Positions 17,960-35,344 of a DNA stretch of 40,251 bases are shown here, one piece after another. A program made the position numbers and the translations under genes. The notes under the pieces were generated by a model. It was not told where the DNA came from. It was given only the letters and a program-made list of their open reading frames with translations, and did not search any database. Positions within the stretch are counted from its first letter, which is position 1. Every line of letters starts with the position of its first letter. This stretch comes from an uncultured Campylobacterota bacterium (GTDB lineage: Bacteria; Campylobacterota; Campylobacteria; Campylobacterales; Arcobacteraceae), in NCBI GenBank assembly GCA_903821805.1, contig CAIJNA010000163.1, forward strand, positions 1 through 40,251, written 5' to 3'.

Positions 17960-18349
17960 ATGGAACATATGGATTTTGCGCATCCTTACTTTGGAGCATT
18001 TGTAATGTTTGTTGTTACATTTGTCGCATTTACTGCAACTACTATGGCATCAAGGTTTATTAGTAGAAAGCTTGCAAGACTTGATACAGAAAAATTGAAA
18101 TGTACTATTTACGAGTGTGGACCAGAGGTAACAAAGCAGCCAAATACAATATCGGTTCAGTTTTATTTGATGGCATTATTATTTATACTTTTTGATGTAG
18201 AGATTATATTTATGTTCCCTTGGGCTGTAGATTTCAAGGTTCTTGGTATGTTTGGTTTTATTGAAATGATTTTATTTATCGTATTGCTTACAATTGGGTT
18301 TGTATATGCATGGAAAAAAGGAGCTTTAGAATGGCACAGCATGAAGTAA
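17960..18349 (+). CDS. nuoA: NADH-quinone oxidoreductase subunit A
   Basis: 129 aa with three TM helices and the YECG motif (IYECGPEV). Strong GGGGGAG RBS. First gene of the nuo cluster. Confidence 0.93.
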
Positions 18350-18840
18350 AATATTTATCAAATGGCGGTGCTCCTATAGCACTTACGACTGTCGATAAGT
18401 TAGTAAATTTTGGAAGAAGTAATTCACTTTGGCCTATGACATATGGTTTAGCATGTTGTGCTATTGAAATGATGGCAACAGGTGCTTCGAGATTTGACTT
18501 TGATAGATTTGGTACTATTTTTAGAGCAAGTCCAAGACAATCTGATGTGCTTGTTATAGCTGGAACTCTTACAAAAAAACATGCAGAGTTTTTAAGAAGA
18601 CTTTATGATCAAATGCCAGATCCTAAATGGGTAATTAGTATGGGGAGTTGTGCTAACACTGGTGGAATGTTTAATACATATGCAACTGTTCAGGGCGCAG
18701 ATAGAGTTATTCCTGTTGATATCTATCTTCCAGGATGTGCACCAAGACCTGAAACATTACAATTTGCACTTATGATGCTACAAAAGAAAATTAGAAGCCA
18801 ACCATGTAGTTTGGCGCAAAAAGCAAAAAGGTTAATCTAA
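18331..18840 (+). CDS. nuoB: NADH-quinone oxidoreductase subunit B
   Basis: N2-cluster motifs [15 protein letters not shown] and PGCAP are present. The ATG at 18331 is preferred over the track start at 18310 because AAGGAG (18318-18323) sits 7 nt upstream. Confidence 0.93.
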
Positions 18841-19661
18841 TGAGAGCTTATCAACCAAAAGACAATGTACAAAAAAAATCATATTACAACGATAGATTTT
18901 ATGTTACACCAACACTAGCAAGAAAATCAGTTTATGATGATTCAGTTTTTAGTAACGATTATTTAAGTTTAACAAAGAAAGTAACAGTAAATGATGTTTA
19001 TCTAGAACTTGATCATTTGGTTCTATGGATAAATCCTGAAGATAACATTTCAGCAATTAAGCATGCAAAAGAAATATTAGCTTATGATTTTTTAGTTGAA
19101 CTTAGTGCAATTGATTATGTGGCAACAAAAGGTGGATTTGAAATTTTTTATGAAATGTTATCAACTTCTAAAAGAAAAAGACTTAGAATTAAGACTTTTA
19201 TTAAAGAAGGAACAGCAATTGAGTCTGTGAATCCGTTATTTAGAATGGCAGACTGGAGTGAGCGTGAAATGTTCGATATGTTTGGAATAGTTGCAAATAA
19301 TCATCCATATATGAAAAGAATTCTTATGCCAGAAGATTGGCATGGGCACCCACTTTTAAAAACTTATCCACTTCATGGTGATGAGGCTGCAAGATGGTAC
19401 GAAGTCGATAAAATTTTTGGACGAGAGGCTAGAGAAACTATAGGTGAAGAGCAAAGAGATTCTGCAGCTATAGATAGATATGACACAACAAGATTCTCAA
19501 GACTTGGACACGAAGTTCCATTTGGAACTGACATTAGAGATGGTAAAGAACCAGATACCCCTGTTAGATATCAAGAAGATGGAGGAATTAAAATCTTCGG
19601 AATACCTCTTGTTACACCATTTGATGAGATAGAAACTAAAAATTTAAAAGAGAGAAGATAA
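18840..19661 (+). CDS. nuoC: NADH-quinone oxidoreductase subunit C
   Basis: 273 aa with the [11 protein letters not shown] signature. TAATG overlap with nuoB. Confidence 0.92.
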
Positions 19662-19662
19662 C

Positions 19663-20889
19663 ATGCAACAAACAAATAGATTAAAACCTTTTTTTGAAAA
19701 TATAGCATTTGACAGAGAAGACAATACTATGGTTGTAAACTTTGGTCCTCAGCATCCATCAGCACATGGACAGCTTCGACTTATTCTTGAGCTTCAAGGA
19801 GAAGAAGTTGTAAAAGCCCATCCAGACGTTGGATACCTTCATAGGGGTATGGAAAAAATGGGTGAAAACATGATTTATAACGAATTTTTGCCTACAACAG
19901 ACAGAATGGATTATATAGCAGCGACTTCAAATAATTATGGATATGCACTGGCAGTTGAAAAACTTTTAGGTATTGAGGCGCCAAGAAGAGCTGAAGTTAT
20001 AAGAACTATGTTGCTTGAAATAAATAGAATTATTTCTCACTTGTTTTGGCTTGCAACACATGCACTAGATGTTGGTGCAATGTCAGTATTTCTTTATGCA
20101 TTTAGAGAAAGAGAATTCGCGATGGATTTAATGGAAGATTATTGTGGAGCTAGACTTACTCATAGTAGCGTTAGAATAGGTGGTGTTCCATTAGATTTAC
20201 CAAAAAATTGGATTGAAGATTTAGAAAAATTTATGGTAGTTCTTGATGAGCAAATCAAAATTTATGAGGGCCTTCTAACAACAAATAGAATCTGGAGAAT
20301 GAGACTAGAAAATATTGGTGTTATTCCAACAGAAATGGCGAAGTCTTGGGGATGTACAGGATTAGTACTTAGAGGAAGTGGTGTTCAATGGGACTTAAGA
20401 AAAGAGATGCCTTACGGACTTTATCCAGAATTAGAATTTGATGTTCCGTTCTCTGATACTTGTGACAGCTATGGAAGATATAAACTTCATATGGAAGAGA
20501 TGTACCAATCTATGAGAATTTTAAAACAATTAATTCCTATGTATCACGAAAGTGAATCTAAATTAATGGCTCATGCTCCTCAGTATATTTCATCTTCAAA
20601 AGAAGAAATGATGACTCAAAATTATTCACTAATGCAACACTTTGTTCTTGTGACTCAAGGTATGAGACCACCAGTCGGAGAAGTTTATGTTGCTACAGAA
20701 TCACCAAAAGGTGAATTGGGTTATTACATTGTAAGTGATGGAAGTCCTTATCCATACAGAATGAAATTAAGAGCACCAAGCTTCTGGCATACAGGAATAT
20801 TGCAAGATCTACTTCCAGGGCATCAGCTTGCCGATGTTGTTACTATTATTGGTAACCTTAATATAGTTTTCGGCGAAATAGATAGATAA
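19663..20889 (+). CDS. nuoD: NADH-quinone oxidoreductase subunit D
   Basis: 408 aa with [11 protein letters not shown] and the C-terminal NIVFGEIDR signature. Confidence 0.95.
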
Positions 20890-20901: not shown

Positions 20902-21168
20902 ATGAAAAGATATGATTTAAGAGAACACGGAAATAGTTTTATCCCTAGACTTACTGAGCTTATGAATAACGAAATAGTTGAAGATGAGAATGGCATATTT
21001 TTATTCGAGATTGGGGATTTTTCTCCAATTCAAGAAGTTTCGGATGTAGTTAAAGCAAATAATTGGACATTAATGAATTCAATCAAATTCAATGAAGTTG
21101 ATTGGACTGTTGTTATTAAAAAAACGCAAGACCAATCTCTTATTGTAGAGACTTCTGAAGAAGAATAG
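20902..21168 (+). CDS. Cys-free 88-aa protein occupying the nuoE position
   Basis: The ORF lies between nuoD and the nuoF-position gene with a GGGG RBS. It contains no cysteine, so it cannot ligate the NuoE 2Fe-2S cluster. The position is analogous to the small non-NuoE proteins of the Campylobacter and Helicobacter nuo operons. Confidence 0.7.
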   Translation: MKRYDLREHGNSFIPRLTELMNNEIVEDENGIFLFEIGDFSPIQEVSDVVKANNWTLMNSIKFNEVDWTVVIKKTQDQSLIVETSEEE

Positions 21169-21176
21169 GAAATATT

Positions 21177-23192
21177 GTGAGCAAAGTATATTTTTCAACT
21201 TGGCAAGGAGAGATTGTAGACAATAGAGGCGCTGCATCTATTGAAGATTGGAAAGAATCATCTGCGAAATTGCCAATGGAGTATGATAAAGATAATCATA
21301 CGAAAGCGTTTGTTGGTTGGGATGGATTTGCACTTTTTACAGCTGATGTTGATGTTGTAAAATTAGCAGTTAATTATGCAAAACAATATCAAGAATATAG
21401 TGAAATGTGTGGAAGATGTGCACCTGGAAGATGGGGTGGACGAATACTTTATGATATGTTGGACAAAATCGCAAGGGGTGAAGGTGAGCATAGTGATCTT
21501 GCGCATCTGAATGAAATAAGTGACACTATGATGGTAACTAGCAAGTGTGAAATTGGGAAAACTGTTCCGGTTCCAATCTTGCAAATGATTAAATATTTTA
21601 ACAATGAATTTAAAAGACTAATTGATACAAAAACAGCTTCACCTTGGTATAACATAGATGATGAAAGATATATTGCAAATATAACTGCACCATGTACTGA
21701 CATGTGTCCTGCACATATTGATATTCCTGCATATATTGAGGGCGTAAGAGATCTGGATTTTAGTGCAACATTGAGTGCAACTAGAGATCATATGCCATTA
21801 GCTCATACATGTGGAAGAGTTTGTCCTCATCCATGTGAAACTGCTTGCAGAAGATCAAATCTCGATGAGCCTATATCTATTATGGAGCTTAAGCGAATAG
21901 GTGCTGATTATGAAACAGATCATAAGCTTGATTGGATTCATCCCTCAAAACCTCAAAAACCTAGAAATGATGGTAAAAAAGTTGCTATTATAGGAGCTGG
22001 ACCAGCTGGACTTACAGCAGCTTACTATTTGGGATTACAAGGAATTAATGTAACAATTTTTGAAGAACTACCAGTTCTTGGTGGTGAAGTTACTGTTGGT
22101 GTTCCAGAATATCGTATGCCATTTGATAAGTATAACGAAGACATCAAGTTGATAACTGAATTAGAAACAGTTGAGGTTATAGCTAACCATAGAGTTACAG
22201 CTGAAAGATTAAAAGAGATTGAAGCAGACTATGATGCTACACTTCTTGGATTTGGCGCTAGACTTTCAAAAGCAATTAGATGTGAAAATGAAAATCCAAA
22301 TCATGAAGGCTATTGGGGAGCTATCGCAATGCTTGATAAAGTTAATCTTTGGACAAAATTTCAAATTGGCAGCCCAGCTTCGAATGAATTAAAAGACAAA
22401 ACTGTTGTTTGTGTTGGTGGTGGATTTACTTCAATGGATGTTGTAAGATGTAGTATTAGAGAAGGTGCTAAAAGAGTTGTAATGCTTTATCGAAGAGATG
22501 AAAAAACAATTATTAAAAACACTACACTTGAGGAATATACTGAAGCTGTTGAAGAAGGTGTTGAGTTCGTTTTTCATAGCGCGATCGATACAATTAGGGA
22601 TGAAAATGGTGTAATTAAATCACTATTAGTAAATCAATACGAGCTTGTTCCAGATCCAAATGGAGGAAGAGCTGAGCTTGTAAAAAGAGATGATGGGGAT
22701 TTTGAAATTGAATGCGACTATTTAATTCCAGCAGTTTCTCAAAGTTCAGATTTGCAGATTCTTCCAAAAGAATGGGAGTTAACAATGACATCATGGGGAA
22801 CTTTACAGACTAATGGTAAAGACTTCATGACAAGTAGACCTGGACTGTTTGCAGCAGGTGATTGTGAATACGGACCTATGACTATTGTTAATGCGGTTGG
22901 ACAAGCAAGACGAGCAGCATCTGTTATCAGTAGATATATTTACGATGGTAAAGTGACTCTAACTGATGAAGAGATCATGGAAGACCATATGAATAAGTTA
23001 AAAGTGTATAACAAAAAAGAAAAAATCACAGGTTGGATGGCAGGACTTCCAAGGGAAGTTAGTGAAAAAGCACCAACTGAAATTAGAAAACACAATAATA
23101 TGGAAGTAAATTTTGGTTTCACTGCAGAAGAAGCGCAAGCAGAAGCCGAAAGATGCATGAGATGTTATTACCTTGGGATGGTGGCCATATGA
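21177..23192 (+). CDS. fusion protein: NuoF C-terminal FeS-domain remnant + GltD/NfnB-like NAD(P)H-dependent FeS flavoprotein (occupies nuoF position)
   Basis: GTG start at 21177 with AGGA 6 nt upstream. Residues ~60-145 align to the NuoF N3 domain (SEMCGRCAPGRWGG ... SKCEIGKTVPVPILQMIKYF). Residues ~170-230 carry the GltD-type FeS motifs CTDMCP and CGRVCPHPCETAC. There is a GAGPAG FAD Rossmann (KVAIIGAGPAGLTAAYYL), a second dinucleotide fold (VVCVGGGFTSMDVVRC ... VVMLYRR) and GLFAAGDC. The stop overlaps the next ATG (ATGA). Confidence 0.85.
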   Translation: MSKVYFSTWQGEIVDNRGAASIEDWKESSAKLPMEYDKDNHTKAFVGWDGFALFTADVDVVKLAVNYAKQYQEYSEMCGRCAPGRWGGRILYDMLDKIARGEGEHSDLAHLNEISDTMMVTSKCEIGKTVPVPILQMIKYFNNEFKRLIDTKTASPWYNIDDERYIANITAPCTDMCPAHIDIPAYIEGVRDLDFSATLSATRDHMPLAHTCGRVCPHPCETACRRSNLDEPISIMELKRIGADYETDHKLDWIHPSKPQKPRNDGKKVAIIGAGPAGLTAAYYLGLQGINVTIFEELPVLGGEVTVGVPEYRMPFDKYNEDIKLITELETVEVIANHRVTAERLKEIEADYDATLLGFGARLSKAIRCENENPNHEGYWGAIAMLDKVNLWTKFQIGSPASNELKDKTVVCVGGGFTSMDVVRCSIREGAKRVVMLYRRDEKTIIKNTTLEEYTEAVEEGVEFVFHSAIDTIRDENGVIKSLLVNQYELVPDPNGGRAELVKRDDGDFEIECDYLIPAVSQSSDLQILPKEWELTMTSWGTLQTNGKDFMTSRPGLFAAGDCEYGPMTIVNAVGQARRAASVISRYIYDGKVTLTDEEIMEDHMNKLKVYNKKEKITGWMAGLPREVSEKAPTEIRKHNNMEVNFGFTAEEAQAEAERCMRCYYLGMVAI

Positions 23193-25447
23193 GCGAAAAA
23201 ATAGAACACAGAGGAAAACCAATAAGTATTACAATTGATGGTAAAGTTTGTGATGGAGTTTATGGTGAAACAATCTTACAAATAGCCAGAAAAAACGATA
23301 TCTATATCCCAACAATGTGTTATTTACCAAAAGTTTCTCCGATTGCAAGCTGTAGAATGTGTGCAGTTAAAGTTGTAGGGGTTGATGGCAATATTTTAAG
23401 TTGTCAAGAAAAAGCTGTAAATGGCGCGGTTGTTACAACTAATAATGATGAATTAACTCATCACAGAACAAATATTATGAAGTTATATGATGTTAATCAT
23501 CCTTTGCAATGTGGTGTTTGTGATAAAAGTGGTGAGTGTGATTTACAAAATAAAACATTAGAATTTAAAGTAGATAGTCAAGAGTTTGCAATTAGAGACT
23601 TGAACCGTAAACAAAAAAAATGGGGCGTTTTGGGATACGATCCAAGTCTTTGTATTATGTGTGAAAAATGTGTACATACTTGCAATGAGATAATAGGAAC
23701 AGCAGCACTTTATATAAAACCAGGTGGGTATAAATCTACAATTGATATTAAAATGAGCAGATGTGAACAATGCGGAGATTGTATATCCGTATGCCCTGTT
23801 GGAGCATTGGTTTCAAATCCGTATAAATATACATCAAATGCATGGGAAAGCACCCAGATTCCAGCAACATGTAGCCATTGCAGTAGCGCATGCGCTCTAA
23901 TTTATGATGTGAAAAATAATGAAAAAATCATGAGAGTAAAAAATGATTTTGAATTTTCTTCACTTTGTGGAGCTGGAAGATTTGGATTTGAATATGAAAA
24001 TAAAAACACAAATAAATCAAAAGAAGAGTTTGAAACAGCACTTAATGCAATAAAAACTTGTGAAACAATTAGATTTAATTCTTACATTACCAATGAAGAA
24101 GCAATGATTTTGCAAACATTGAAAGAAAAATTAGGAATAAAGCTTGTCAATGAAGATGCTTATAATTATCAATCATTCCTAAGAACGTATGCTTTGGCAG
24201 CAGGAACGAATCTTTATAGTGCAAGCAACAGAACTATTCAAAATAGTGATGCCATTATCATGATTGGTACAAGAATAAGCAGGGATAATCCTGTTGTGAA
24301 ATATAGTGTAAATATAGCAACAAAGAAAAAAAGAGCTGAATTTATATATATGCATCCGATTGATGATATAGCTTTAGCCAATAAATATACACAATTTGTT
24401 AAATATGAGGTTGGCAGTGAAGAGGCTGTTTTGGCAATGCTTTGTAAATATTTTGTATTAAATGCGCCACAAGAAATAACTTCATTTATAGATGATCTTG
24501 ATATTGGGTATTTAAGCGGTGAGTCAAGTGTTGGCGAAGAGGAAATTGAAGCCATTAAAACTAGATTTATTAGAAGAAAAGAAAAATCAATAATTATTGG
24601 AAGTGATATTTATGGTCACCCAAATGCTACGAATATTGCGAAAATGGTTGCAATTCTTGAGCAGTATGGAAACTTTAAAGTTCTTTTAATTCCAACATTT
24701 ACAAATACTTTAGGTGTTAGTTTAATATGTGATCTTGATAAGGTTGCAACTGGAAAAGTTCTTGGATACAACGAACTAGGAGATTTTACGTTTTCAAATG
24801 ATGGTAATGGTGATTTTAATATACCAGCATTAAATCAACAAGAAGGTACTTTTACTTCTTTGGACATGCAGGTCGTAAATACAAATGCAGCTTTACCATT
24901 TGATGGACCTTGCCTAAATAATTTTGCAAATGAAATTTTAGACATACATCAAAAACATACTATAAATTATACTAGTTTATTGGGCTTAATTAAAGAATTC
25001 AAGCCTATTGCATTTGATGATTTTAAAAATGGATTTGACAAGTACGGTAATGATTTAAGAGGTTACGAATTGAATAGATTTAATACAACAACTTCAAATC
25101 AATTACCAGATGATATAACACCTCTTGATACGTTTAATGGAAGTGTTATCTATAGATGTGAGCCGCTTCATCAATTCAATAAAGCAACTGGAAAATCGCT
25201 ACTTCTTCAGTCTGATACACACTTAAGAGGAAGCGCTTCTTTTGCAACTGCTGCAAAGATTAAAGCTGGTGATAAAGTAAATATAATTTACGGAAATCAA
25301 ATAAAAACAAAAATGTTTAAAATAGATACAACAATAAAAGGTACTGTTGCACTTTATCCTACGTTTGACGATGGATTAAGTGATGATTTGATACCTTTGG
25401 GATATAGATTTAAAAGAGTAAAAATAGAAAAGGTTGCTGAATTATGA
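23189..25447 (+). CDS. nuoG: NADH-quinone oxidoreductase subunit G paralog 1 (retains N7-like Cys motif)
   Basis: The ATG at 23189 (MSEKIEHRG...) is preferred over 23153 because it forms an ATGA overlap with the upstream stop. Motifs present: the 2Fe-2S pattern CX10CX2CX13C, N5 (HPLQCGVCDKSGEC), CIMCEKCVHTC, CEQCGDCISVCP, and CSHCSSAC-X24-C (N7-like). There is also a molybdopterin-oxidoreductase-like C-terminal part. Confidence 0.85.
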   Translation: MSEKIEHRGKPISITIDGKVCDGVYGETILQIARKNDIYIPTMCYLPKVSPIASCRMCAVKVVGVDGNILSCQEKAVNGAVVTTNNDELTHHRTNIMKLYDVNHPLQCGVCDKSGECDLQNKTLEFKVDSQEFAIRDLNRKQKKWGVLGYDPSLCIMCEKCVHTCNEIIGTAALYIKPGGYKSTIDIKMSRCEQCGDCISVCPVGALVSNPYKYTSNAWESTQIPATCSHCSSACALIYDVKNNEKIMRVKNDFEFSSLCGAGRFGFEYENKNTNKSKEEFETALNAIKTCETIRFNSYITNEEAMILQTLKEKLGIKLVNEDAYNYQSFLRTYALAAGTNLYSASNRTIQNSDAIIMIGTRISRDNPVVKYSVNIATKKKRAEFIYMHPIDDIALANKYTQFVKYEVGSEEAVLAMLCKYFVLNAPQEITSFIDDLDIGYLSGESSVGEEEIEAIKTRFIRRKEKSIIIGSDIYGHPNATNIAKMVAILEQYGNFKVLLIPTFTNTLGVSLICDLDKVATGKVLGYNELGDFTFSNDGNGDFNIPALNQQEGTFTSLDMQVVNTNAALPFDGPCLNNFANEILDIHQKHTINYTSLLGLIKEFKPIAFDDFKNGFDKYGNDLRGYELNRFNTTTSNQLPDDITPLDTFNGSVIYRCEPLHQFNKATGKSLLLQSDTHLRGSASFATAAKIKAGDKVNIIYGNQIKTKMFKIDTTIKGTVALYPTFDDGLSDDLIPLGYRFKRVKIEKVAEL

Positions 25448-27888: not shown

Positions 27889-28851
27889 ATGGATAATGAT
27901 ATATTAATGACTATTTTAAAAGTTGTTGTAGTTCTTTTAGTATTTTCTGCTCTAGCAGGTTTTACGACTTATATTGAAAGAAAAGTTTTAGCATTTATGC
28001 AAAGACGACTTGGGCCTGTTCATGTTGGTCCGTTTGGTTTATTACAAATCGCAGCTGATGGTATTAAGCTATTTACAAAAGAAGATTTCGTTCCGCAAAA
28101 TGCAAATAGAATTATATTTATGGTTGCTCCTATTATAACAGCTGCAACAGCTTTTATAGCTATGAGTGCTGTTCCTTTTATTCCAGGAGTTATTATTTCT
28201 GATGTAAATGTTGGGATACTATTTGTTCTTGGTGTAATGGCAACAGGACTTTACGGACCACTTTTAGCAGGTATGGCCCAAGCAAACAAATGGGGACTTT
28301 TGGGTGGCGCTAGAACAGCTATTCAACTTTTATCATATGAGGTTGTAACTGGTCTTTCTATCCTTGCACCTATTATGATGATTGGTAGTTTGAGCTTGAT
28401 TGATATTAATAATTATCAAGCTGGAGGCATTCAAAATTGGTTAATTTGGACACAACCTATTGCATTTTTCTTATTTTTGATTGCTGGATTTGCAGAAACA
28501 AATAGAACTCCTTTTGACCTTTTAGAGCATGAAGCTGAAGTTGTTAGTGGATACGCAACTGAATATTCAGGAATGAGATGGGGTATGTTCTTTATTGGTG
28601 AATATGCAAACTTATTTACTATTTCATTCTTGGTTGCATTAATTTTCCTTGGAGGGTTTAATGATTTAGGATTCATTCCTGGGGCAATTGCAATTCTCTT
28701 GAAAGTAATGTTTTTAATTTTTGTATTCCTTTGGACAAGAGCTTCTTGGCCTCACGTAAGACCTGATCAATTGATGTGGCTTTGCTGGAAAGTATTAATG
28801 CCAATTGGATTATTAAACATAGTAATCACTGGCATAGTGATGATGGTATAA
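27889..28851 (+). CDS. nuoH: NADH-quinone oxidoreductase subunit H
   Basis: 320-aa polytopic membrane protein with ERKVLAFMQRRLGP and TNRTPFDLLEHEAEVVSGY signatures. Confidence 0.95.
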   Translation: MDNDILMTILKVVVVLLVFSALAGFTTYIERKVLAFMQRRLGPVHVGPFGLLQIAADGIKLFTKEDFVPQNANRIIFMVAPIITAATAFIAMSAVPFIPGVIISDVNVGILFVLGVMATGLYGPLLAGMAQANKWGLLGGARTAIQLLSYEVVTGLSILAPIMMIGSLSLIDINNYQAGGIQNWLIWTQPIAFFLFLIAGFAETNRTPFDLLEHEAEVVSGYATEYSGMRWGMFFIGEYANLFTISFLVALIFLGGFNDLGFIPGAIAILLKVMFLIFVFLWTRASWPHVRPDQLMWLCWKVLMPIGLLNIVITGIVMMV

Positions 28852-28861
28852 GGATAATAGT

Positions 28862-29497
28862 ATGAGTTATGAAGATTTAAAAAAACATACAAACGAAAGA
28901 AGCACTGGAACCAATGGTTACGTGCAGGTGGAAATTGAAGAATATCCAAAAACAGGATGGGAAGCTTTTAAACAAGCAATGGGAAGAACATTAAGTATGG
29001 AATTGTTTAAAGGCCTTGGTATTACATTTAAAATAATGAACCAAGCATTATTTAAAAACCAAATGCATACAGTTCAATATCCAATTGAACAAATGCCAAT
29101 TAGCCCAAGATATAGAGCCGTTCATAAACTTTTAGGACTTCTAGAGAGTGGAAATAATAGATGTATCGGATGTGGACTTTGTGAAAAAATTTGTATTTCA
29201 AACTGTATCAGAATGGAAACAAAAATTGATGAAAAATCTAGAAAAGAAGTTATGGAATATTCTATCAATCTTGGAAGATGTATTTTCTGTGGATATTGTG
29301 CTGAGGTTTGTCCTGAGCTTGCGATTGTTCATGGCGGAAGATATGAGAATGCAAGTGAGCAAAGAGCACACTTTGTATTAAAAGATGACTTGCTTACGCC
29401 ATTTGATGCTATTGCACAACAAATTGAATACGATGGATTTGGTGCAATTAGTCCAGATGCTGATCAAAAAATCAAAAAAACACCATTAGCGTATTAA
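28862..29497 (+). CDS. nuoI: NADH-quinone oxidoreductase subunit I
   Basis: 211 aa with two 4Fe-4S motifs, CIGCGLCEKIC and CIFCGYCAEVCP. It has an N-terminal extension relative to E. coli NuoI. Confidence 0.93.
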   Translation: MSYEDLKKHTNERSTGTNGYVQVEIEEYPKTGWEAFKQAMGRTLSMELFKGLGITFKIMNQALFKNQMHTVQYPIEQMPISPRYRAVHKLLGLLESGNNRCIGCGLCEKICISNCIRMETKIDEKSRKEVMEYSINLGRCIFCGYCAEVCPELAIVHGGRYENASEQRAHFVLKDDLLTPFDAIAQQIEYDGFGAISPDADQKIKKTPLAY

Positions 29498-29506
29498 GGA
29501 AAAATA

Positions 29507-30079
29507 ATGTTTGAAGTAGTAGCTTTTTATCTCTTTGCGGTTTTAACAATCGCAATGTTTACAATTACAGTTGTGACTAAGAATGCACTTTATGCCCTTA
29601 GTTCTTTGGCTGCAGGTATGATTTTCATATCAGCATTTTTCTTTTTATTAAATGCAGACTTTTTAGGGGTGGTTCAAATAGTTGTTTATACGGGAGCTGT
29701 TATGGCTCTTTATGCATTTGGTATGATGTTTTTTGATTCAATTAGTGATGTTGAAGAAAAAATTTCAAATCCGAGGCTCGCATTTTTCTTAACAGGGATT
29801 GTTGCTCTTTTGGTTGTGCTTATTTTATTGGCACCAATCGTAAGTTCAAATATTATTGCTTCATACCCAATTCACAATGAGTATAGCAACACAGCTGATG
29901 TAGGACTTATATTATTTACGAAATTTTTAGTTCCTTTTGAAGTTGCAGCAGTTATGCTACTTGTTGCAATGATTGGCGGAATTATTTTAGCTGGTAAAAA
30001 AATGGATACGGATGCAAGTTCTTTGGAAGCAGAGCAAGATCATCACCATTGCGACTTTAATACAAAGGATATCAAATGA
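29507..30079 (+). CDS. nuoJ: NADH-quinone oxidoreductase subunit J
   Basis: 190-aa hydrophobic protein with the VVYTGAVMAL and PFEVAAVMLLVAMIG patterns. Operon position supports the call. Confidence 0.9.
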   Translation: MFEVVAFYLFAVLTIAMFTITVVTKNALYALSSLAAGMIFISAFFFLLNADFLGVVQIVVYTGAVMALYAFGMMFFDSISDVEEKISNPRLAFFLTGIVALLVVLILLAPIVSSNIIASYPIHNEYSNTADVGLILFTKFLVPFEVAAVMLLVAMIGGIILAGKKMDTDASSLEAEQDHHHCDFNTKDIK

Positions 30080-30381
30080 TGGTAGCTTTAAATGATTATT
30101 TAATACTCAGTACAATAATTTTTATGATTGGGTTATTTGGAGTAGTAAAAAGAAAAAACCTATTAATGTTGTTTTTTTCTACAGAAATTATGCTTAATGC
30201 AGTAAATATTGGTTTTGTAGCAATTGGAAAATTCCATCAAGATTTAAGTGGACAAATGTTCGCGTTCTTTATTATTGCTATAGCTGCAAGTGAAGTTGCA
30301 ATAGGACTTGGACTGCTTATTTTATGGTTTAAGAGAAAAAATACAATCGATCTAGATTCGCTACAACAAATGAGAGGTTAG
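30076..30381 (+). CDS. nuoK: NADH-quinone oxidoreductase subunit K
   Basis: 101 aa with three TM helices and a conserved Glu in TEIMLNAVN. ATGA overlap with nuoJ. Confidence 0.92.
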   Translation: MMVALNDYLILSTIIFMIGLFGVVKRKNLLMLFFSTEIMLNAVNIGFVAIGKFHQDLSGQMFAFFIIAIAASEVAIGLGLLILWFKRKNTIDLDSLQQMRG

Positions 30382-30383
30382 GA

Positions 30384-32315
30384 ATGGAAAATTATTTATA
30401 TTTAGCATTATTTGCTCCACTTGTTGGGGCACTATTTGCAACATTATTTTCAAATAGTAAAAAAGCACAAATTGTAGGAATAATAACATCATTATTATTG
30501 GCAACATCAATGGTTGCTTCACTTATACTGCTTGCACATGTTTACACAACTGAGCAAATTATTCATGTAAATATGATGGATTGGATATCAATTGGACATG
30601 TTTATATTCCGTTCGGTTTTATAGTTGATCAGGTTAGCGTAACTATGATGGTTGTAGTTACTATAGTTTCAACAATGGTTCATATTCATTCAAATGGATA
30701 TATGGATCATGATAAATCATTTAATAGATTTTTTGCATGGCTATCTGCATTCGTTTTCTCTATGTTAATACTTGTTATGAGTGATAACTTTGCCGGATTA
30801 TTTATAGGTTGGGAAGGTGTTGGTCTTTGCTCTTGGGGATTAATTGGTTTCTGGTACCATAAGGAAGATATTGCTCATAGTAAAGATCTTACGAAATCTC
30901 CATTTTCAACATTGTCACCATATTCTGCAGTTTCACCTTCATGGGCAGCTAATGAAGCATTTATAATGAATAGAGTTGCGGATCTTGGAATGCTAATCGG
31001 AATGTTCTTAATCTTCTGGAATCTTGGAACTTTACAATATGATGAAGTTTTTGCAAACATTGGTATGCTTAGTCATGAATTAGTTGTTGCTATCGCTATA
31101 TTCTTATTTATAGGTGCAATGGGAAAATCAGCTCAATTTCCTTTTAATACTTGGCTTGCAAATGCAATGGAAGGACCAACTCCAGTTTCTGCACTTATTC
31201 ACGCAGCAACAATGGTTACAGCTGGGGTTTACTTGGTTGTTAGAGCAAATGAAATATTTACTATTGTTCCTGAAGTTGGTTATTTCATAGCTGGACTTGG
31301 AGCATTTGTAGCCATAGGGGCTGCTTCAATGGCATTGGTTGCAACAAATATGAAGAAAATTATTGCATACTCAACATTATCTCAACTTGGATATATGTTT
31401 GTAGCAGCTGGACTTGGAGCTTATTGGGTTGCGTTATTTCACCTTGCTACTCATGCATTCTTTAAATCAGTATTATTCTTAGGTGCAGGAAATGTAATGC
31501 ATGCAATGAATGATGAAATTAATATTAAAAATATGGGTGGACTTAGAAAGCATATGCCATACACAGCATTAATTATGACAGTTGCATCTCTTGCTTTAGC
31601 TGGTATTTTCCCATTGGCAGGATTCTTTTCAAAAGATATGATACTAGAGTCAGCTTTTGCAAATGAAGCTTACATATTATGGACTGTTTTATGGATAACA
31701 GCTGGTTTGACAGCATTTTATTCATTTAGACTTGTGATGTATGTATTTTATGGAAAAGAGAATTACCATAATTTGGGTTATCACCCACATGAGAGTTATG
31801 GTTATGTTATAGCAGCTATGACTCCATTAGCTATTTTAGCAGTTATTGCTGGATGGTTTGAAGAAGAATTTGTTGAATTTATTACTATGTCTCTTCCAGT
31901 TTGGGAAGGTCACCTTGAGCATAATACACATTATATGCTTATTGGAGTTACTAGTGCTATAGCAATTATTGGTGTAGCATTTGCAGTGTTTAAATATCTA
32001 AAAAATGGAACATATTTTAGTTCAAGTATGCATAAAAGATTTTGCTATAAAGTTCTTGCAAATCAATATTATCTTCCTCATTTGTGGGAAAAAGTAGTTG
32101 TTAAGCCTTATTACAAATTGTCTGTGTATTGCTGGAAAAAAGTTGACATGAAAATTATTGATGCAATAGTAGATGGTATTGCAAAAATTATTTATACAGG
32201 TGGAGCAGAAGGTAGAGCAATTCAAACAGGAAATCTATCTAGTGCATTAAAATTAATGGTTGGAGGAGTATTTATTTTACTGACTCTCATATTATTTTTT
32301 GGTTTAACAAAGTAA
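30384..32315 (+). CDS. nuoL: NADH-quinone oxidoreductase subunit L
   Basis: 643-aa antiporter-like subunit with GWEGVGLCSW and GKSAQFPFNTWLANAMEGPTPVSALIHAATMV signatures and a long C-terminal part. Confidence 0.95.
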   Translation: MENYLYLALFAPLVGALFATLFSNSKKAQIVGIITSLLLATSMVASLILLAHVYTTEQIIHVNMMDWISIGHVYIPFGFIVDQVSVTMMVVVTIVSTMVHIHSNGYMDHDKSFNRFFAWLSAFVFSMLILVMSDNFAGLFIGWEGVGLCSWGLIGFWYHKEDIAHSKDLTKSPFSTLSPYSAVSPSWAANEAFIMNRVADLGMLIGMFLIFWNLGTLQYDEVFANIGMLSHELVVAIAIFLFIGAMGKSAQFPFNTWLANAMEGPTPVSALIHAATMVTAGVYLVVRANEIFTIVPEVGYFIAGLGAFVAIGAASMALVATNMKKIIAYSTLSQLGYMFVAAGLGAYWVALFHLATHAFFKSVLFLGAGNVMHAMNDEINIKNMGGLRKHMPYTALIMTVASLALAGIFPLAGFFSKDMILESAFANEAYILWTVLWITAGLTAFYSFRLVMYVFYGKENYHNLGYHPHESYGYVIAAMTPLAILAVIAGWFEEEFVEFITMSLPVWEGHLEHNTHYMLIGVTSAIAIIGVAFAVFKYLKNGTYFSSSMHKRFCYKVLANQYYLPHLWEKVVVKPYYKLSVYCWKKVDMKIIDAIVDGIAKIIYTGGAEGRAIQTGNLSSALKLMVGGVFILLTLILFFGLTK

Positions 32316-32324
32316 GGGGAATAG

Positions 32325-33848
32325 ATGGAACACATTTTATCAATATTAATATTTTTTCCATTATTTGCAGCACTCATAGGATTGCTAGTAGATAAAGAAT
32401 CAATTAGGGCTTACGGTATAGTAATAACATTTGTAGAGTTTTTACTATCTTGCGTTATGTGGGCTGGATACGATTCATCAGCTGGAAGTATTCAATTTAC
32501 TGAATTTATTCCACTTGTTTCACAATTCGGAATATCATACAATTTAGGATTAGATGGTATATCTCTTTTTCTAGTAATTATGACTACATTTATAACAATG
32601 ATCTCATTGATAGGTTTGACTGAAACAAGAAATTTAAAACATATGATTTTATCAGTTCTTGTTTTAGAGATGGCTATGGTTGGGGTTTTTGTTGCATTAG
32701 ATGCTATGATTTTTTATCTTTTCTGGGAATTCTCACTTGTTCCAATGCTTTATTTAATTGGGGCTTGGGGAGGACCTCAAAGAATTTATGCATCTGTTAA
32801 ATTCTTTATTTATACATTTACTGGTTCATTAATTATGCTACTTGGAATGCTTTATTTAGGGTATATTTATTCAGAAGCAACTGGTGTTTGGAGTTTTAAT
32901 CTTCTAGATTGGTATATGTTACAACTTCCACTCGATATGCAATTATGGTTATTTGCAGCATTTTTCTTTGGATTCGCTATTAAAGTTCCTATGGTTCCAT
33001 TTCATACATGGCTTCCATATGCTCATGGACAAGCACCTACAATTGGTTCTGTTATTCTTGCAGCAGTATTGCTTAAAATGGGAACTTATGGTTTTATAAG
33101 ATTCTCACTACCACTTTTTCCTGACGCATCAGTTGAAATGATGATACCAATGGCTATTTTAGGGATTATTGCTATAGTTTATACAGCAATGGTAGCCTAC
33201 GCACAAGAAGATATCAAACAAGTTATAGCTTACAGTTCAGTGTCTCATATGGGTGTAATAATTCTAGGAATTTTTGCATTGAATGTTGAAGGAATAGGTG
33301 GGAGTATTTTCTTAATGATTTCTCATGGAATCGTTTCTGGTGCACTGTTTATGCTTGTTGGTGTTTTGTATGATAGAAAACATACTAAAATGATGAGTGA
33401 ATTTGGTGGATTAGCAAAAGTGATGCCCATGTATGCAACAATATTTGGAATCATGTTAATGGCTTCTGTAGGATTGCCACTTACAATAGGATTTGTTGGA
33501 GAATTCTTGAGCTTACTTGGTTTCTTTGCTGTATCTCCAATTATAACTGCTATAGCAGGTCTTACAATAATTTTAGGTGCAGTGTATATGCTTGTTCTTT
33601 ATAAAAGAACATTCTTTGGACCAATAACAAATGAGTCAAATCTTAAATTAAAAGATTTAAATGGAAGAGAGTATAGTGCTTTAATACCACTTGTTATGCT
33701 TGTTGTTTATTTGGGAATCTATCCAAAGCCTATCTTGGAGCCAGTTGATAAAAGTGTAAAACAAGTTGTACAAATTATGTATATTAAAGCAGTAACTCCA
33801 GAAGCTAAAGAAAAAATAGCTACAGTTAATTCAATAGGAGAGAGATAA
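32325..33848 (+). CDS. nuoM: NADH-quinone oxidoreductase subunit M
   Basis: 507-aa antiporter-like subunit with KVPMVPFHTWLPYAHGQAPT and IAYSSVSHMG motifs. Confidence 0.95.
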   Translation: MEHILSILIFFPLFAALIGLLVDKESIRAYGIVITFVEFLLSCVMWAGYDSSAGSIQFTEFIPLVSQFGISYNLGLDGISLFLVIMTTFITMISLIGLTETRNLKHMILSVLVLEMAMVGVFVALDAMIFYLFWEFSLVPMLYLIGAWGGPQRIYASVKFFIYTFTGSLIMLLGMLYLGYIYSEATGVWSFNLLDWYMLQLPLDMQLWLFAAFFFGFAIKVPMVPFHTWLPYAHGQAPTIGSVILAAVLLKMGTYGFIRFSLPLFPDASVEMMIPMAILGIIAIVYTAMVAYAQEDIKQVIAYSSVSHMGVIILGIFALNVEGIGGSIFLMISHGIVSGALFMLVGVLYDRKHTKMMSEFGGLAKVMPMYATIFGIMLMASVGLPLTIGFVGEFLSLLGFFAVSPIITAIAGLTIILGAVYMLVLYKRTFFGPITNESNLKLKDLNGREYSALIPLVMLVVYLGIYPKPILEPVDKSVKQVVQIMYIKAVTPEAKEKIATVNSIGER

Positions 33849-33850
33849 TT

Positions 33851-35344
33851 ATGATAACTCCAATTTCAATAGATATGATAAGTTTAAATATTGCATCTAT
33901 AGCACCAATGACTATAGCAGTACTTGGAGCTTTATTTATATTATGTATAGACTTAGTTAGAAAACACAATGATAAACATTTTTATGTTGTACTTACAGCT
34001 TTATTTTTATTAATAGATTTTGTTTCTATTGTTTCGTATAGCGGAGCAAATAGAGGTTTCTTTGATGTGATCTTGATTGATGGTATTTCATTGTTATCGC
34101 AAGCAATTATTGTTATTTCTTCTGCATTATTCATATTTCTAAGTCTTACAAAACAAAGATTCCATGAATATAGATACCCAGAATATTTTGCATTATTCTT
34201 ATTTATGACAGCGGGATTCCAATTTATGGCATCTTCTGACAATCTGATTTTGATTTTTGTTGGCCTTGAAACAGCATCTTTGAGTTTATATACAATGATA
34301 GCTATGCACAATAGAGATAAAGCAAGTGAAGCAGCGATTAAATACTTTACGATGGGAGCATTGGCTGCAGCATTTTATGCATTCGGAGCTATGCTACTTT
34401 ATTATGTAACTGGAAGCATTGAGTTGTCTACTATATCAAATCATTTCGCTATTACAAACTTCGATAATTACCCGTTAATTCTACTGGGTGTTGTATTTAT
34501 GATTGGAGCATTAGGATTTAAATTATCGCTTGTTCCTTTCCATACTTGGGCTCCAGATGTTTATGAAGGTTCAAGTGCATCAATGGCTGGTTATATTGCG
34601 ATCGTTCCTAAAATAGCAATACTTGTAGTTGCTATAAGATTCTTTAGTATATTTATTCAAGCAGATGATACGTGGGTTAGAAGTACTCTTTATATGATGG
34701 CTATTATTACAATGACACTACCTAACCTTATTGCATTAGTTCAAACAGATATTAAAAGAATGCTTGCATTTTCATCAATTTCACATGCAGGATTCGTTCT
34801 TGTTGCAATCATGCTAGGAACAACACAAGCAATTGAAAGCTTATTTTTATATTGGATAATGTTTGCATTTGTAATTGTTGGTGCATTTGCAATGCTTTGG
34901 GTTCATAGAACAAAAGAAGAACCATCTTTTTATGGATTTACTTCTGACTATCAATTTGACAAATTTACAGGCTTGGTTAAAACTGCACCTGTTGCTGCGT
35001 TCATGCTTGGTATTTTAATGCTAGCTTTAGCTGGCGTTCCCCCATTTTCACTATTCTGGGGAAAAATGTATTTACTTAGTGCAACAATTAACAGTGGTGA
35101 AATATTCCTTGCTGTGGTTATGGTCTTGAACTCTGCTATAGCAGCTTTCTATTATTTAAAATTAATTGTTTATATGTTCTTAAAAACAAGAGATGATAAT
35201 ATTGCAATTGAGTATAGAGCTATGAATAATCTTATTCTAAAAGTTATTATTGGAATAGCTGTTGCATTCTCTATCTTATCAATATTTTGGCTTGATACTA
35301 TTCTGGCAATAGTTAAAATGGCTGTTCAAACAAGTGGATACTAA
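33851..35344 (+). CDS. nuoN: NADH-quinone oxidoreductase subunit N
   Basis: 497-aa antiporter-like subunit with the KLSLVPFHTWAPDVYEGS motif. Last gene of the operon. Confidence 0.95.
   Translation: MITPISIDMISLNIASIAPMTIAVLGALFILCIDLVRKHNDKHFYVVLTALFLLIDFVSIVSYSGANRGFFDVILIDGISLLSQAIIVISSALFIFLSLTKQRFHEYRYPEYFALFLFMTAGFQFMASSDNLILIFVGLETASLSLYTMIAMHNRDKASEAAIKYFTMGALAAAFYAFGAMLLYYVTGSIELSTISNHFAITNFDNYPLILLGVVFMIGALGFKLSLVPFHTWAPDVYEGSSASMAGYIAIVPKIAILVVAIRFFSIFIQADDTWVRSTLYMMAIITMTLPNLIALVQTDIKRMLAFSSISHAGFVLVAIMLGTTQAIESLFLYWIMFAFVIVGAFAMLWVHRTKEEPSFYGFTSDYQFDKFTGLVKTAPVAAFMLGILMLALAGVPPFSLFWGKMYLLSATINSGEIFLAVVMVLNSAIAAFYYLKLIVYMFLKTRDDNIAIEYRAMNNLILKVIIGIAVAFSILSIFWLDTILAIVKMAVQTSGY

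Follow-up and report, generated by a model that had tools for sequence, protein, structure and literature searches.

The electron source of complex I in the Campylobacterota has been in question since the genomes of Helicobacter pylori and Campylobacter jejuni showed NuoE and NuoF to be missing. A non-canonical NuoEF accompanied by two NuoGs was first noted by Weerakoon and Olson (2008), as credited in a preprint (bioRxiv 10.1101/717884, 2019) in which it was reported that Suden_1824 replaces NuoF in Sulfurimonas denitrificans, that this protein is homologous to NfnB of Thermotoga maritima with conservation of the cluster Cys residues and of the YRR motif (cited for 2'-phosphate binding in NfnB), that two NuoG copies follow it, and that the arrangement is conserved in Sulfurimonas and Sulfurovum. 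Two further described systems are StnC, whose GltD-like module contains flavin adenine dinucleotide (FAD) together with two 4Fe-4S clusters and hands electrons one by one from reduced nicotinamide adenine dinucleotide phosphate (NADPH) to a NuoG-like chain, with no bifurcation at the FAD of that module (PMC10482914), and SfrAB, the NADPH-dependent Fe(III) oxidoreductase of Geobacter sulfurreducens (PMC7483475). Here, a 40,251-nucleotide stretch of DNA from an uncultured Campylobacterota bacterium (contig CAIJNA010000163.1, positions 1 to 40,251; the whole stretch is referred to as the window) was analysed, in which the nuoF slot of a complete nuo operon is occupied by a 671-residue protein, designated F671, preceded by the 88-residue NuoE-slot protein X88 and followed by two NuoG paralogs, designated G1 and G2.

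Suden_1824 is presumed to be an ortholog of F671: the Sulfurimonas loci retrieved in this study, all from organisms other than S. denitrificans itself, encode at this position a protein with 64-65% identity, flanked by X88 on the upstream side and by a pair of NuoG genes on the other. The replacement of NuoF by a protein of the GltD/SfrB family has already been noted for Sulfurimonas, and the NADP(H) reading was reached independently for Suden_1824 (10.1101/717884). That preprint, however, makes no mention of an N-domain resembling NuoF, of the Cys lost from the N3-type site, of the permuted iron-sulfur (FeS) motif or of a link to HP1265, and the host here is Arcobacteraceae-like. In the literature searched, the NuoF-like N-domain with its three-Cys site, the permuted motif, the relationship to SfrB and the origin of HP1265 from G1 are undescribed and no later characterisation of an F671-type protein was found; no Campylobacterota complex I structure was present among the PDB matches. 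F671 is proposed here to be the nucleotide-binding, NADP(H) input subunit of Campylobacterota-type complex I in place of NuoF, a reading to which we assign a probability of roughly 0.62 and which builds on domain composition, ligand conservation, permuted topology, and gene order and its conservation. The relevant features of F671 are as follows.

21177..23192, + strand: F671, nuoF-slot protein of 671 residues (open reading frame and translation, Pfam and NCBIfam domains, homologs of ~670 residues)
21177..21671, + strand: N-domain, residues 1-165, comprising the end of the NuoF ubiquitin-like domain and a four-helix FeS domain
21372-21617, + strand: PF10589 match, residues 66-147 (Pfam)
21408..21557, + strand: N3-type three-Cys site (NuoF/HydB alignment, conservation and covariation tables), with C78 at 21408-21410, C81 at 21417-21419, G84 in place of the third Cys at 21426-21428, C124 at 21546-21548, invariant E125 at 21549-21551 and G127 at 21555-21557
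21675..21923, + strand: Fer4_20 core, residues 167-249, with C173, C177, C212, C216, C220 and C224
21975..22907, + strand: two-Rossmann flavoprotein body, residues 267-577 (Pfam, alignments, Foldseek)
21993-22013, + strand: FAD motif GAGPAGL, residues 273-279
22416-22439, + strand: NADPH motif GGGFTSMD, residues 414-421
22488-22496, + strand: Y438-R439-R440
Residues 559-563, + strand: AAGDC motif
23073..23168, + strand: C-terminal tail, residues 633-664, with C660 and C663, corresponding to the permuted first ~28 Fer4_20 positions

Pfam places three domains on F671, namely NADH_4Fe-4S (PF10589; residues 66-147, expect value (E) 3.2e-20), Fer4_20 (residues 167-249, E 7.9e-22) and Pyr_redox_2 (residues 267-577, E 1.2e-26), and returns no match to Complex1_51K (PF01512), the Rossmann-like domain for flavin mononucleotide (FMN) and the unphosphorylated nucleotide NADH. 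The NCBIfam NuoF model covers residues 20-147 only (model positions 282-408 of 410), and residues 166-663 are spanned by PRK12771 (NAD(P)-binding) and GltD-type models, every NCBIfam match being far under its curated cut-off. In PDB sequence searches, residues 27-152 resemble the C-termini of HydB, HoxF and NuoF, and residues 169-664 resemble StnC (8oh5_C), the NfnA subunit of NfnABC (9bov_A, 9n5u_A), NfnB/NfnL, GltD and DPD. A Foldseek search with an AlphaFold2 model, built from 45 sequences of 76-100% identity and used for fold search only, returned NfnABC, StnC, NfnL, GltD and DPD as top matches, and the best sequence and fold matches of the GltD-like module are StnC and NfnABC-NfnA (E 3.5e-73; Foldseek E 3e-27). 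By sequence, F671 is the C-terminal FeS domain of NuoF joined to a GltD/NfnB/StnC-like module predicted to bind FAD, two [4Fe-4S] clusters and NADPH.

The original prediction, made from the DNA letters and translated reading frames, had described precisely such a fusion, from which the FMN/NADH part of NuoF was absent. Pfam, NCBIfam, PDB and Foldseek agree on the two modules, each with significant profile matches, and only the last ~130 positions of NuoF are represented; the motifs then quoted (CGRC 78-81, CTDMCP, CGRVCPHPCETAC, GAGPAGL, GGGFTSMD, LYRR, AAGDC and a terminal CMRC) are all present. Relative to NuoF/Nqo1/NDUFV1, F671 therefore occupies the same operon position and shares, in residues 20-147, homology with the last ~130 residues, yet it lacks the FMN/NADH Rossmann domain with its glycine-rich loops, retains three of four N3 ligands and carries another flavin and nucleotide module. 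With NfnB (NfnL) and GltD it shares the FAD/NADPH fold and the two-cluster FeS domain; these proteins differ in their canonical, non-permuted order and in their NfnA or GltB partners, and NfnB bifurcates.

The permuted order concerns the terminal CMRC, which the earlier note had counted as an additional Cys pair. Taken by itself, the tail of F671 (residues ~633-664, ...EAQAEAERCMRC) covers Fer4_20 profile positions 1-28. Tail and core together score 94 bits against the profile (positions 2-111), as opposed to 68 bits for the core alone, and the joined tail-core sequence aligns without a break with T. maritima NfnB residues 13-133 (E 3.9e-18). The split topology recurs in StnC, whose RCxxC helix lies at the C-terminal end of the module. 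On these alignments, the terminal CMRC represents the opening half of the GltD cluster motif, moved to the end by circular permutation, and is no extra pair. Counting the tail, the Cys set predicted to ligate two GltD-type [4Fe-4S] clusters is complete (C660, C663, C173, C177, C212, C216, C220 and C224), and both cluster motifs are all-Cys. The six internal Cys are present in 77/77 relatives and all eight in at least 75/77, gaps at the tail Cys being confined to one sequence per lineage. In StnC the GltD-like module sits within a NuoG-like polypeptide, and Lys or Cys114 serves the proximal cluster, whereas in F671 the module belongs to a separate polypeptide, fused to the NuoF C-terminal domain, with the full eight-Cys set.

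Conservation is equally strict in the flavoprotein body. The FAD-fold features GAGPAGL (273-279), FEE (295-297) and AAGD (559-562), which form the predicted flavin site, are invariant, as are both GxGxxG-type motifs and the GD motif among the aligned relatives. Y438, R439 and R440 occur in 77/77 relatives, and the YRR of F671 aligns with the LYRR of NADPH-binding StnC. The association of this motif with NADPH, which the original prediction had put forward, is thereby borne out at the level of sequence, the motif being that cited in T. maritima NfnB (10.1101/717884). Use of NADH, or of both nucleotides, would instead make this an ordinary NADH:quinone oxidoreductase with an exchanged dehydrogenase head. 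Surveys have listed Arcobacter and the C. fetus group as possessing an ordinary 14-subunit NADH-type complex I, counting their operons as complete NuoA-N NADH enzymes (PMC3144371, PMC5630845); where the operon is of the present type, the figure of 14 could reflect misannotation, with X88 taken for NuoE and F671 for NuoF. The invariant Y-R-R, its alignment with NADPH-binding StnC and NfnB, and the use of NADPH by all close solved relatives render this explanation highly unlikely, even though some members of the GltD family use NADH.

Database annotation offers another reading, according to which F671 would literally be the beta subunit of a formate dehydrogenase or the small subunit of glutamate synthase. 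More than 100 homolog clusters of ~670 residues and 76-100% identity, from Arcobacter and other Campylobacterota, carry names such as "FAD-dependent oxidoreductase" and "formate dehydrogenase beta subunit" (the latter given to many by JGI), and NCBIfam GltD-type models do match F671. Those matches all lie far below the curated cut-offs, however, neither GltB nor a catalytic formate dehydrogenase gene is found nearby, and G1 and G2 behave as NuoG, their molybdopterin-domain matches in Pfam being weak and partial, so that this reading is extremely improbable.

The N-terminal module is less orthodox. Its N3-type site reads EMCGRCAPGRWG...SKCEIG, as compared to the canonical ESCGxCxPCRxG...SxCxxG; the NuoF-type CxxCxxC appears as CGRCAPG (CGRC at 78-81), with the third cluster Cys replaced by Gly84. 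This Gly is found in 56/57 aligned Campylobacterota sequences, the exception being a gap or misalignment, while Glu125 is invariant. At position 127, Gly is present in 57/57 aligned Campylobacterota and Cys in 20/20 Desulfuromonadales sequences. Across the wider family the third Cys is usually kept, and where it is Gly (Desulfuromonadales and a few others) position 127 is Cys (KCTLC); Cys127 of the Desulfuromonadales proteins thus appears, from the pattern of covariation, as a clear compensatory relocation of the fourth ligand. The designation of this module as a NuoF N3 domain accordingly holds for the PF10589 fold but gives no warrant for expecting a normal N3 cluster, three of four Cys being present in all 57 Campylobacterota sequences. 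The three-Cys site may hold a Glu-assisted 4Fe-4S cluster, a 3Fe-4S cluster, a cluster with a ligand supplied by a partner, or no cluster.

To place F671 in a wider context, one genome per species was scanned, yielding at least 597 relatives, the best 80 loci of which were analysed. These comprise 57 Campylobacterota loci (Arcobacteraceae, Sulfurovaceae, Sulfurimonadaceae/Sulfuricurvum, Nitratifractor and two Helicobacter) and ~22 loci from Desulfuromonadales/Geobacteraceae. The gene order nuoD, X88, F671, G1, G2, nuoH is identical in 57/57 Campylobacterota loci, and it is also seen in H. aurati and H. cappadocius within the 12-kb loci available, which end inside G2. The corresponding genes in the window are as follows.

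17960..20889, + strand: nuoA, nuoB, nuoC and nuoD (Pfam)
20902..21168, + strand: X88, 88-residue NuoE-slot protein, PF16514 (Pfam; PDB 2LXR match)
23189..25447, + strand: G1, first NuoG paralog, probably 752 residues
25444..27885, + strand: G2, second NuoG (full-length NCBIfam PRK08493 match, 1090 bits)
27889..35344, + strand: nuoH, I, J, K, L, M and N (Pfam)

In the ~22 Desulfuromonadales loci, homologs collinear with F671 (37-40% identity over residues 1-671) are followed by a NuoG/Fdh-alpha-like gene, encoding 806-875 residues where complete, and no nuo genes were found near them. Based on taxon, size and partner gene rather than accession, these pairs are most likely SfrB-SfrA. SfrB of G. 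sulfurreducens SfrAB (PMC7483475) resembles F671 in its N-domain, permuted GltD module, Gly at the third N3 Cys and NuoG-like partner downstream; SfrB-like proteins differ in the compensating Cys127 (KCTLC) and in the location of their genes outside nuo operons. A HMMER search with residues 1-165 further indicated that the FSSW.G..VDNR N-terminus, the NuoF-type domain and the GltD module together form a widespread architecture. The idea that the "NuoF remnant" was made in place by truncation of a resident NuoF was therefore rejected, since homologs with this entire architecture, N-terminus included, are common outside nuo operons; by this comparison of sequences, F671 is a finished module recruited whole into the nuoF slot.

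In both the Campylobacterota and the Desulfuromonadales, and wherever downstream sequence is present, a gene with a NuoG-type N-terminus directly follows every full-length relative. This constant association fits a docking contact like that between NuoF and NuoG, as had been suggested at the outset for the NuoF-like domain. The same data raise the possibility that F671 and G1 constitute a soluble SfrAB-like NADPH oxidoreductase that is merely co-transcribed with complex I and forms no part of it: the Desulfuromonadales homologs are collinear with F671 along its whole length and have a NuoG-like partner gene, and the scores of SfrA-like partners are marginally better with G1 than with G2. G1 nonetheless resembles G2 (full-length identity 37%, 542 bits) far more than it does SfrA-like proteins (~30% identity, confined to the N-terminal ~500 residues), for which reason the notion of G1 as an imported SfrA was rejected, and none of the Campylobacterota loci examined has the F671-G1 pair anywhere but in the nuo operon. 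The soluble-enzyme explanation is further weakened by the persistence of truncated G1 in the slot after loss of F671, described below, which argues for a structural role in the complex; taken together, these data make it decidedly unlikely.

The invariant Cys and His positions of G1, as read from the alignment, fit 2Fe-2S, His-Cys3, dicluster and N7-type sites, and in both G1 and G2 the ferredoxin-type dicluster region with its eight Cys is preserved, as are the four Cys of the N7-type position. Compared with G1, G2 carries ~24 additional residues between the halves of the dicluster motif and a second insertion, of ~45 residues, further downstream; at one long-linker Helicobacter locus (L057) both proteins are enlarged (G1, 1046 residues; G2, 1012 residues). 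Operons of the H. pylori type encode only one NuoG, and G2 is its ortholog. HP1265 (by report also C. jejuni Cj1574c) belongs to a flavodoxin-type complex I and occupies the same slot as F671, directly after the X88/HP1264 homolog. The possibility, raised earlier, that the N-terminal part of F671 is homologous to Cj1574c/HP1265 was not upheld when tested with HP1265, Cj1574c entering through its reported similarity to that protein: no similarity between HP1265 and F671 was detected (BLASTP E 0.62; hhalign probability 0.3%), and no HP1265-like protein was among the top 150 matches of an exhaustive HMMER search with residues 1-165. HP1265 instead matches G1 residues 397-519 (E 5e-14; H. pylori locus L085:6201-7217). 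Two large protein searches with X88 gave close relatives only, none from H. pylori or C. jejuni, and the H. pylori locus was recovered from metagenome contigs scanned with the HP1264 sequence taken from the PDB alignment.

A protein of ~270 residues, here called mini-G1, fills the nuoF slot in 22 distinct environmental Campylobacterota operons (among loci L089-L122). It matches G1 in two blocks (~360-515, with 38-51% identity, and ~645-761) and also matches HP1265, while G2 is matched weakly. By hhalign, the mini-G1/HP1265-type family aligns with G1 at a probability of 100% (E 1.4e-64) versus E 2.4e-23 for G2, and one short mini-G1 protein matches the Campylobacterota NuoG model (E 2e-27). Judged by these matches, HP1265 and the ~270-residue nuoF-slot proteins are truncated copies of G1. 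Three operon types can be distinguished: type A, with X88, F671, G1 and G2; type B, the H. pylori type, with X88, mini-G1 and G2; and type C, with X88 directly followed by G2 as the single nuoG (L088, L093 and L100). G2 is kept in both B and C.

Neighbour-joining trees, for a sample outside which C. jejuni lies, bear on the direction of change. In the NuoD tree, type B loci fall at three or more places among type A loci. The tree built from the shared part of G1 places HP1265 beside Helicobacter G1 in 191/200 bootstraps and environmental mini-G1 beside Arcobacteraceae G1 in 142/200, and unites all mini-G1 in one clade in 0/200. These groupings suggest at least two independent truncations of G1, and the simplest reading of the sequences is that operons of type A are ancestral and have turned into type B repeatedly, shedding F671 and the iron-sulfur half of G1. 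The presence of HP1265-type proteins, homologous to the C-terminal half of G1, in the same slot of H. pylori-type operons ties G1, and through G1 also F671, to the complex, and retention of the C-terminal half of G1 in those operons suggests this half as an anchor to the peripheral arm.

For F671 as the NADP(H) input subunit, the following path is envisaged. NADPH would bind the second Rossmann fold, with YRR holding the 2'-phosphate, and reduce FAD. Electrons would then leave FAD singly, cross the permuted GltD-type FeS domain via its pair of [4Fe-4S] clusters and pass to the NuoG-type chain of G1, probably by way of the NuoF-like N-domain with its three-Cys site (C78, C81, C124 and perhaps E125), this domain docking on the N-terminal 2Fe-2S domain of G1 as NuoF does on NuoG. 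From G1, electrons would continue to G2, NuoI, NuoB and quinone, with proton pumping coupled to this flow; F671 would be wired to G2 by the FeS half of G1, whose C-terminal half would anchor the module to the peripheral arm. The reaction would be reversible. For heterotrophs such as Arcobacter and enterohepatic Helicobacter, the occurrence of F671 points to NADPH oxidation, while in sulfur-oxidising autotrophs the proton-motive force could drive NADPH formation, with which the universal presence of the arrangement in the sampled Sulfurimonas and Sulfurovum is compatible.

Several observations weigh against this proposal. The AlphaFold model of F671 is mediocre (pLDDT, the model's own confidence score, 67.7, with the FeS domain and the tail below 50) and yields no geometry. 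The N3-type site is one Cys short throughout the Campylobacterota, and by analogy with StnC the wire could bypass it, running from the GltD-type clusters directly to G1. In Helicobacter sp. 11S02629-2 and one uncultured Helicobacter, moreover, a low-complexity linker of roughly 70-300 residues separates the two modules of F671 (orthologs at L054:9971-12145, L057:9896-12784 and L081:6254-8557); linkers of such variable length imply that the modules are structurally independent and lack rigid coupling. Members of the family encoded in nuo operons are as yet known as sequences, and Geobacter SfrAB is soluble, which speaks against taking the attachment of F671-G1 to the membrane complex for granted.

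A different function was put forward for Suden_1824 by McNichol and Sievert (bioRxiv 10.1101/717884), who hypothesised a reverse machine, bifurcating or confurcating, in which electrons from menaquinol, driven by the proton-motive force, reduce NADP+ and ferredoxin together; F671 would then act as NADP+ reductase, with the branch point at one NuoG or at the FAD. The F671 module is indeed homologous to bifurcating NfnB, a branch could arise at the two NuoG paralogs, both of which have dicluster and N7-type Cys sets, and the arrangement is universal in Sulfurimonas and Sulfurovum, the sampled genera of autotrophs using the reductive tricarboxylic acid cycle. It is, however, also found in heterotrophic Arcobacteraceae and host-associated Helicobacter, which have no obvious need for reverse flow to ferredoxin; StnC, the closest solved relative, has lost bifurcation at its FAD (PMC10482914); both GltD-type cluster motifs of F671 are all-Cys; and no NfnA-like partner, ferredoxin or flavodoxin gene lies within the operon. 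The search for an NfnA-like gene was likewise negative across the window, and the partners of StnC/Bfu-type NfnA, i.e., NuoE/HydC-like or full NuoF/HydB-like genes, are absent from the operon according to Pfam. On balance, such a machine is unlikely. A more specific version, in which F671 itself is a true branch point sending one NADPH electron to the three-Cys cluster, G1, G2 and quinone and the other through the GltD-type clusters to ferredoxin or flavodoxin (or the reverse), would seem a distant prospect; if true, this would be a flavin-based bifurcating or confurcating complex I coupled to the proton-motive force, and H. pylori and C. jejuni would have inherited a stripped-down version of it, their flavodoxin-dependent complex I, with the low-potential entry only.

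The immediate gene context is compatible with F671 acting as the NADP(H) input subunit. The nuo operon in the window is complete, in the order nuoABCD, X88, F671, G1, G2, nuoH-N (all verified by Pfam), and is flanked by housekeeping genes. F671 starts at a GTG codon with AGGA 8 nt upstream, and conservation of its N-terminus (MSKVYFS.WQGE) among homologs supports the chosen start. The mechanically called G1 reading frame begins at 23153, within F671; the true start is most likely the ATG at 23189, in an ATGA overlap with the F671 stop codon. The G2 start similarly overlaps the G1 stop codon (25444-25447), and the stop-start overlaps of both gene pairs were counted in favour of the input-subunit proposal. 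X88, which is specific to the Campylobacterota, is homologous to H. pylori HP1264 (PDB 2LXR, E 3.8e-16), and a homolog was found at every locus examined; it contains zero Cys and hence no FeS cluster. Sulfurovum-type loci (L007, L009 and L010) encode X88 homologs with a long Ala/Glu/Lys-rich C-terminal extension, in reading frames of up to 268 codons, whereas the acidic tail of the window X88 is short. At one further locus (L018:1-9000), a second, distantly related set of nuoL-, nuoH-, nuoB- and nuoD-like genes (24-42% identity) lies directly upstream of the nuo operon and may represent an Ech/Hyf-type membrane hydrogenase module.

If F671 does link complex I to NADP(H), much of the phylum, including Arcobacter, Sulfurimonas, Sulfurovum and several Helicobacter species, would couple its NADPH pool directly to the quinone pool and the proton-motive force, which would bear on models of carbon fixation in sulfidic habitats and on the redox balance of host-associated species. 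The operon with F671 and two NuoGs also appears to be ancestral, and the H. pylori type seems to have descended from it once F671 had been lost and G1 truncated, a history that in turn suggests an identity for the HP1265-type proteins.

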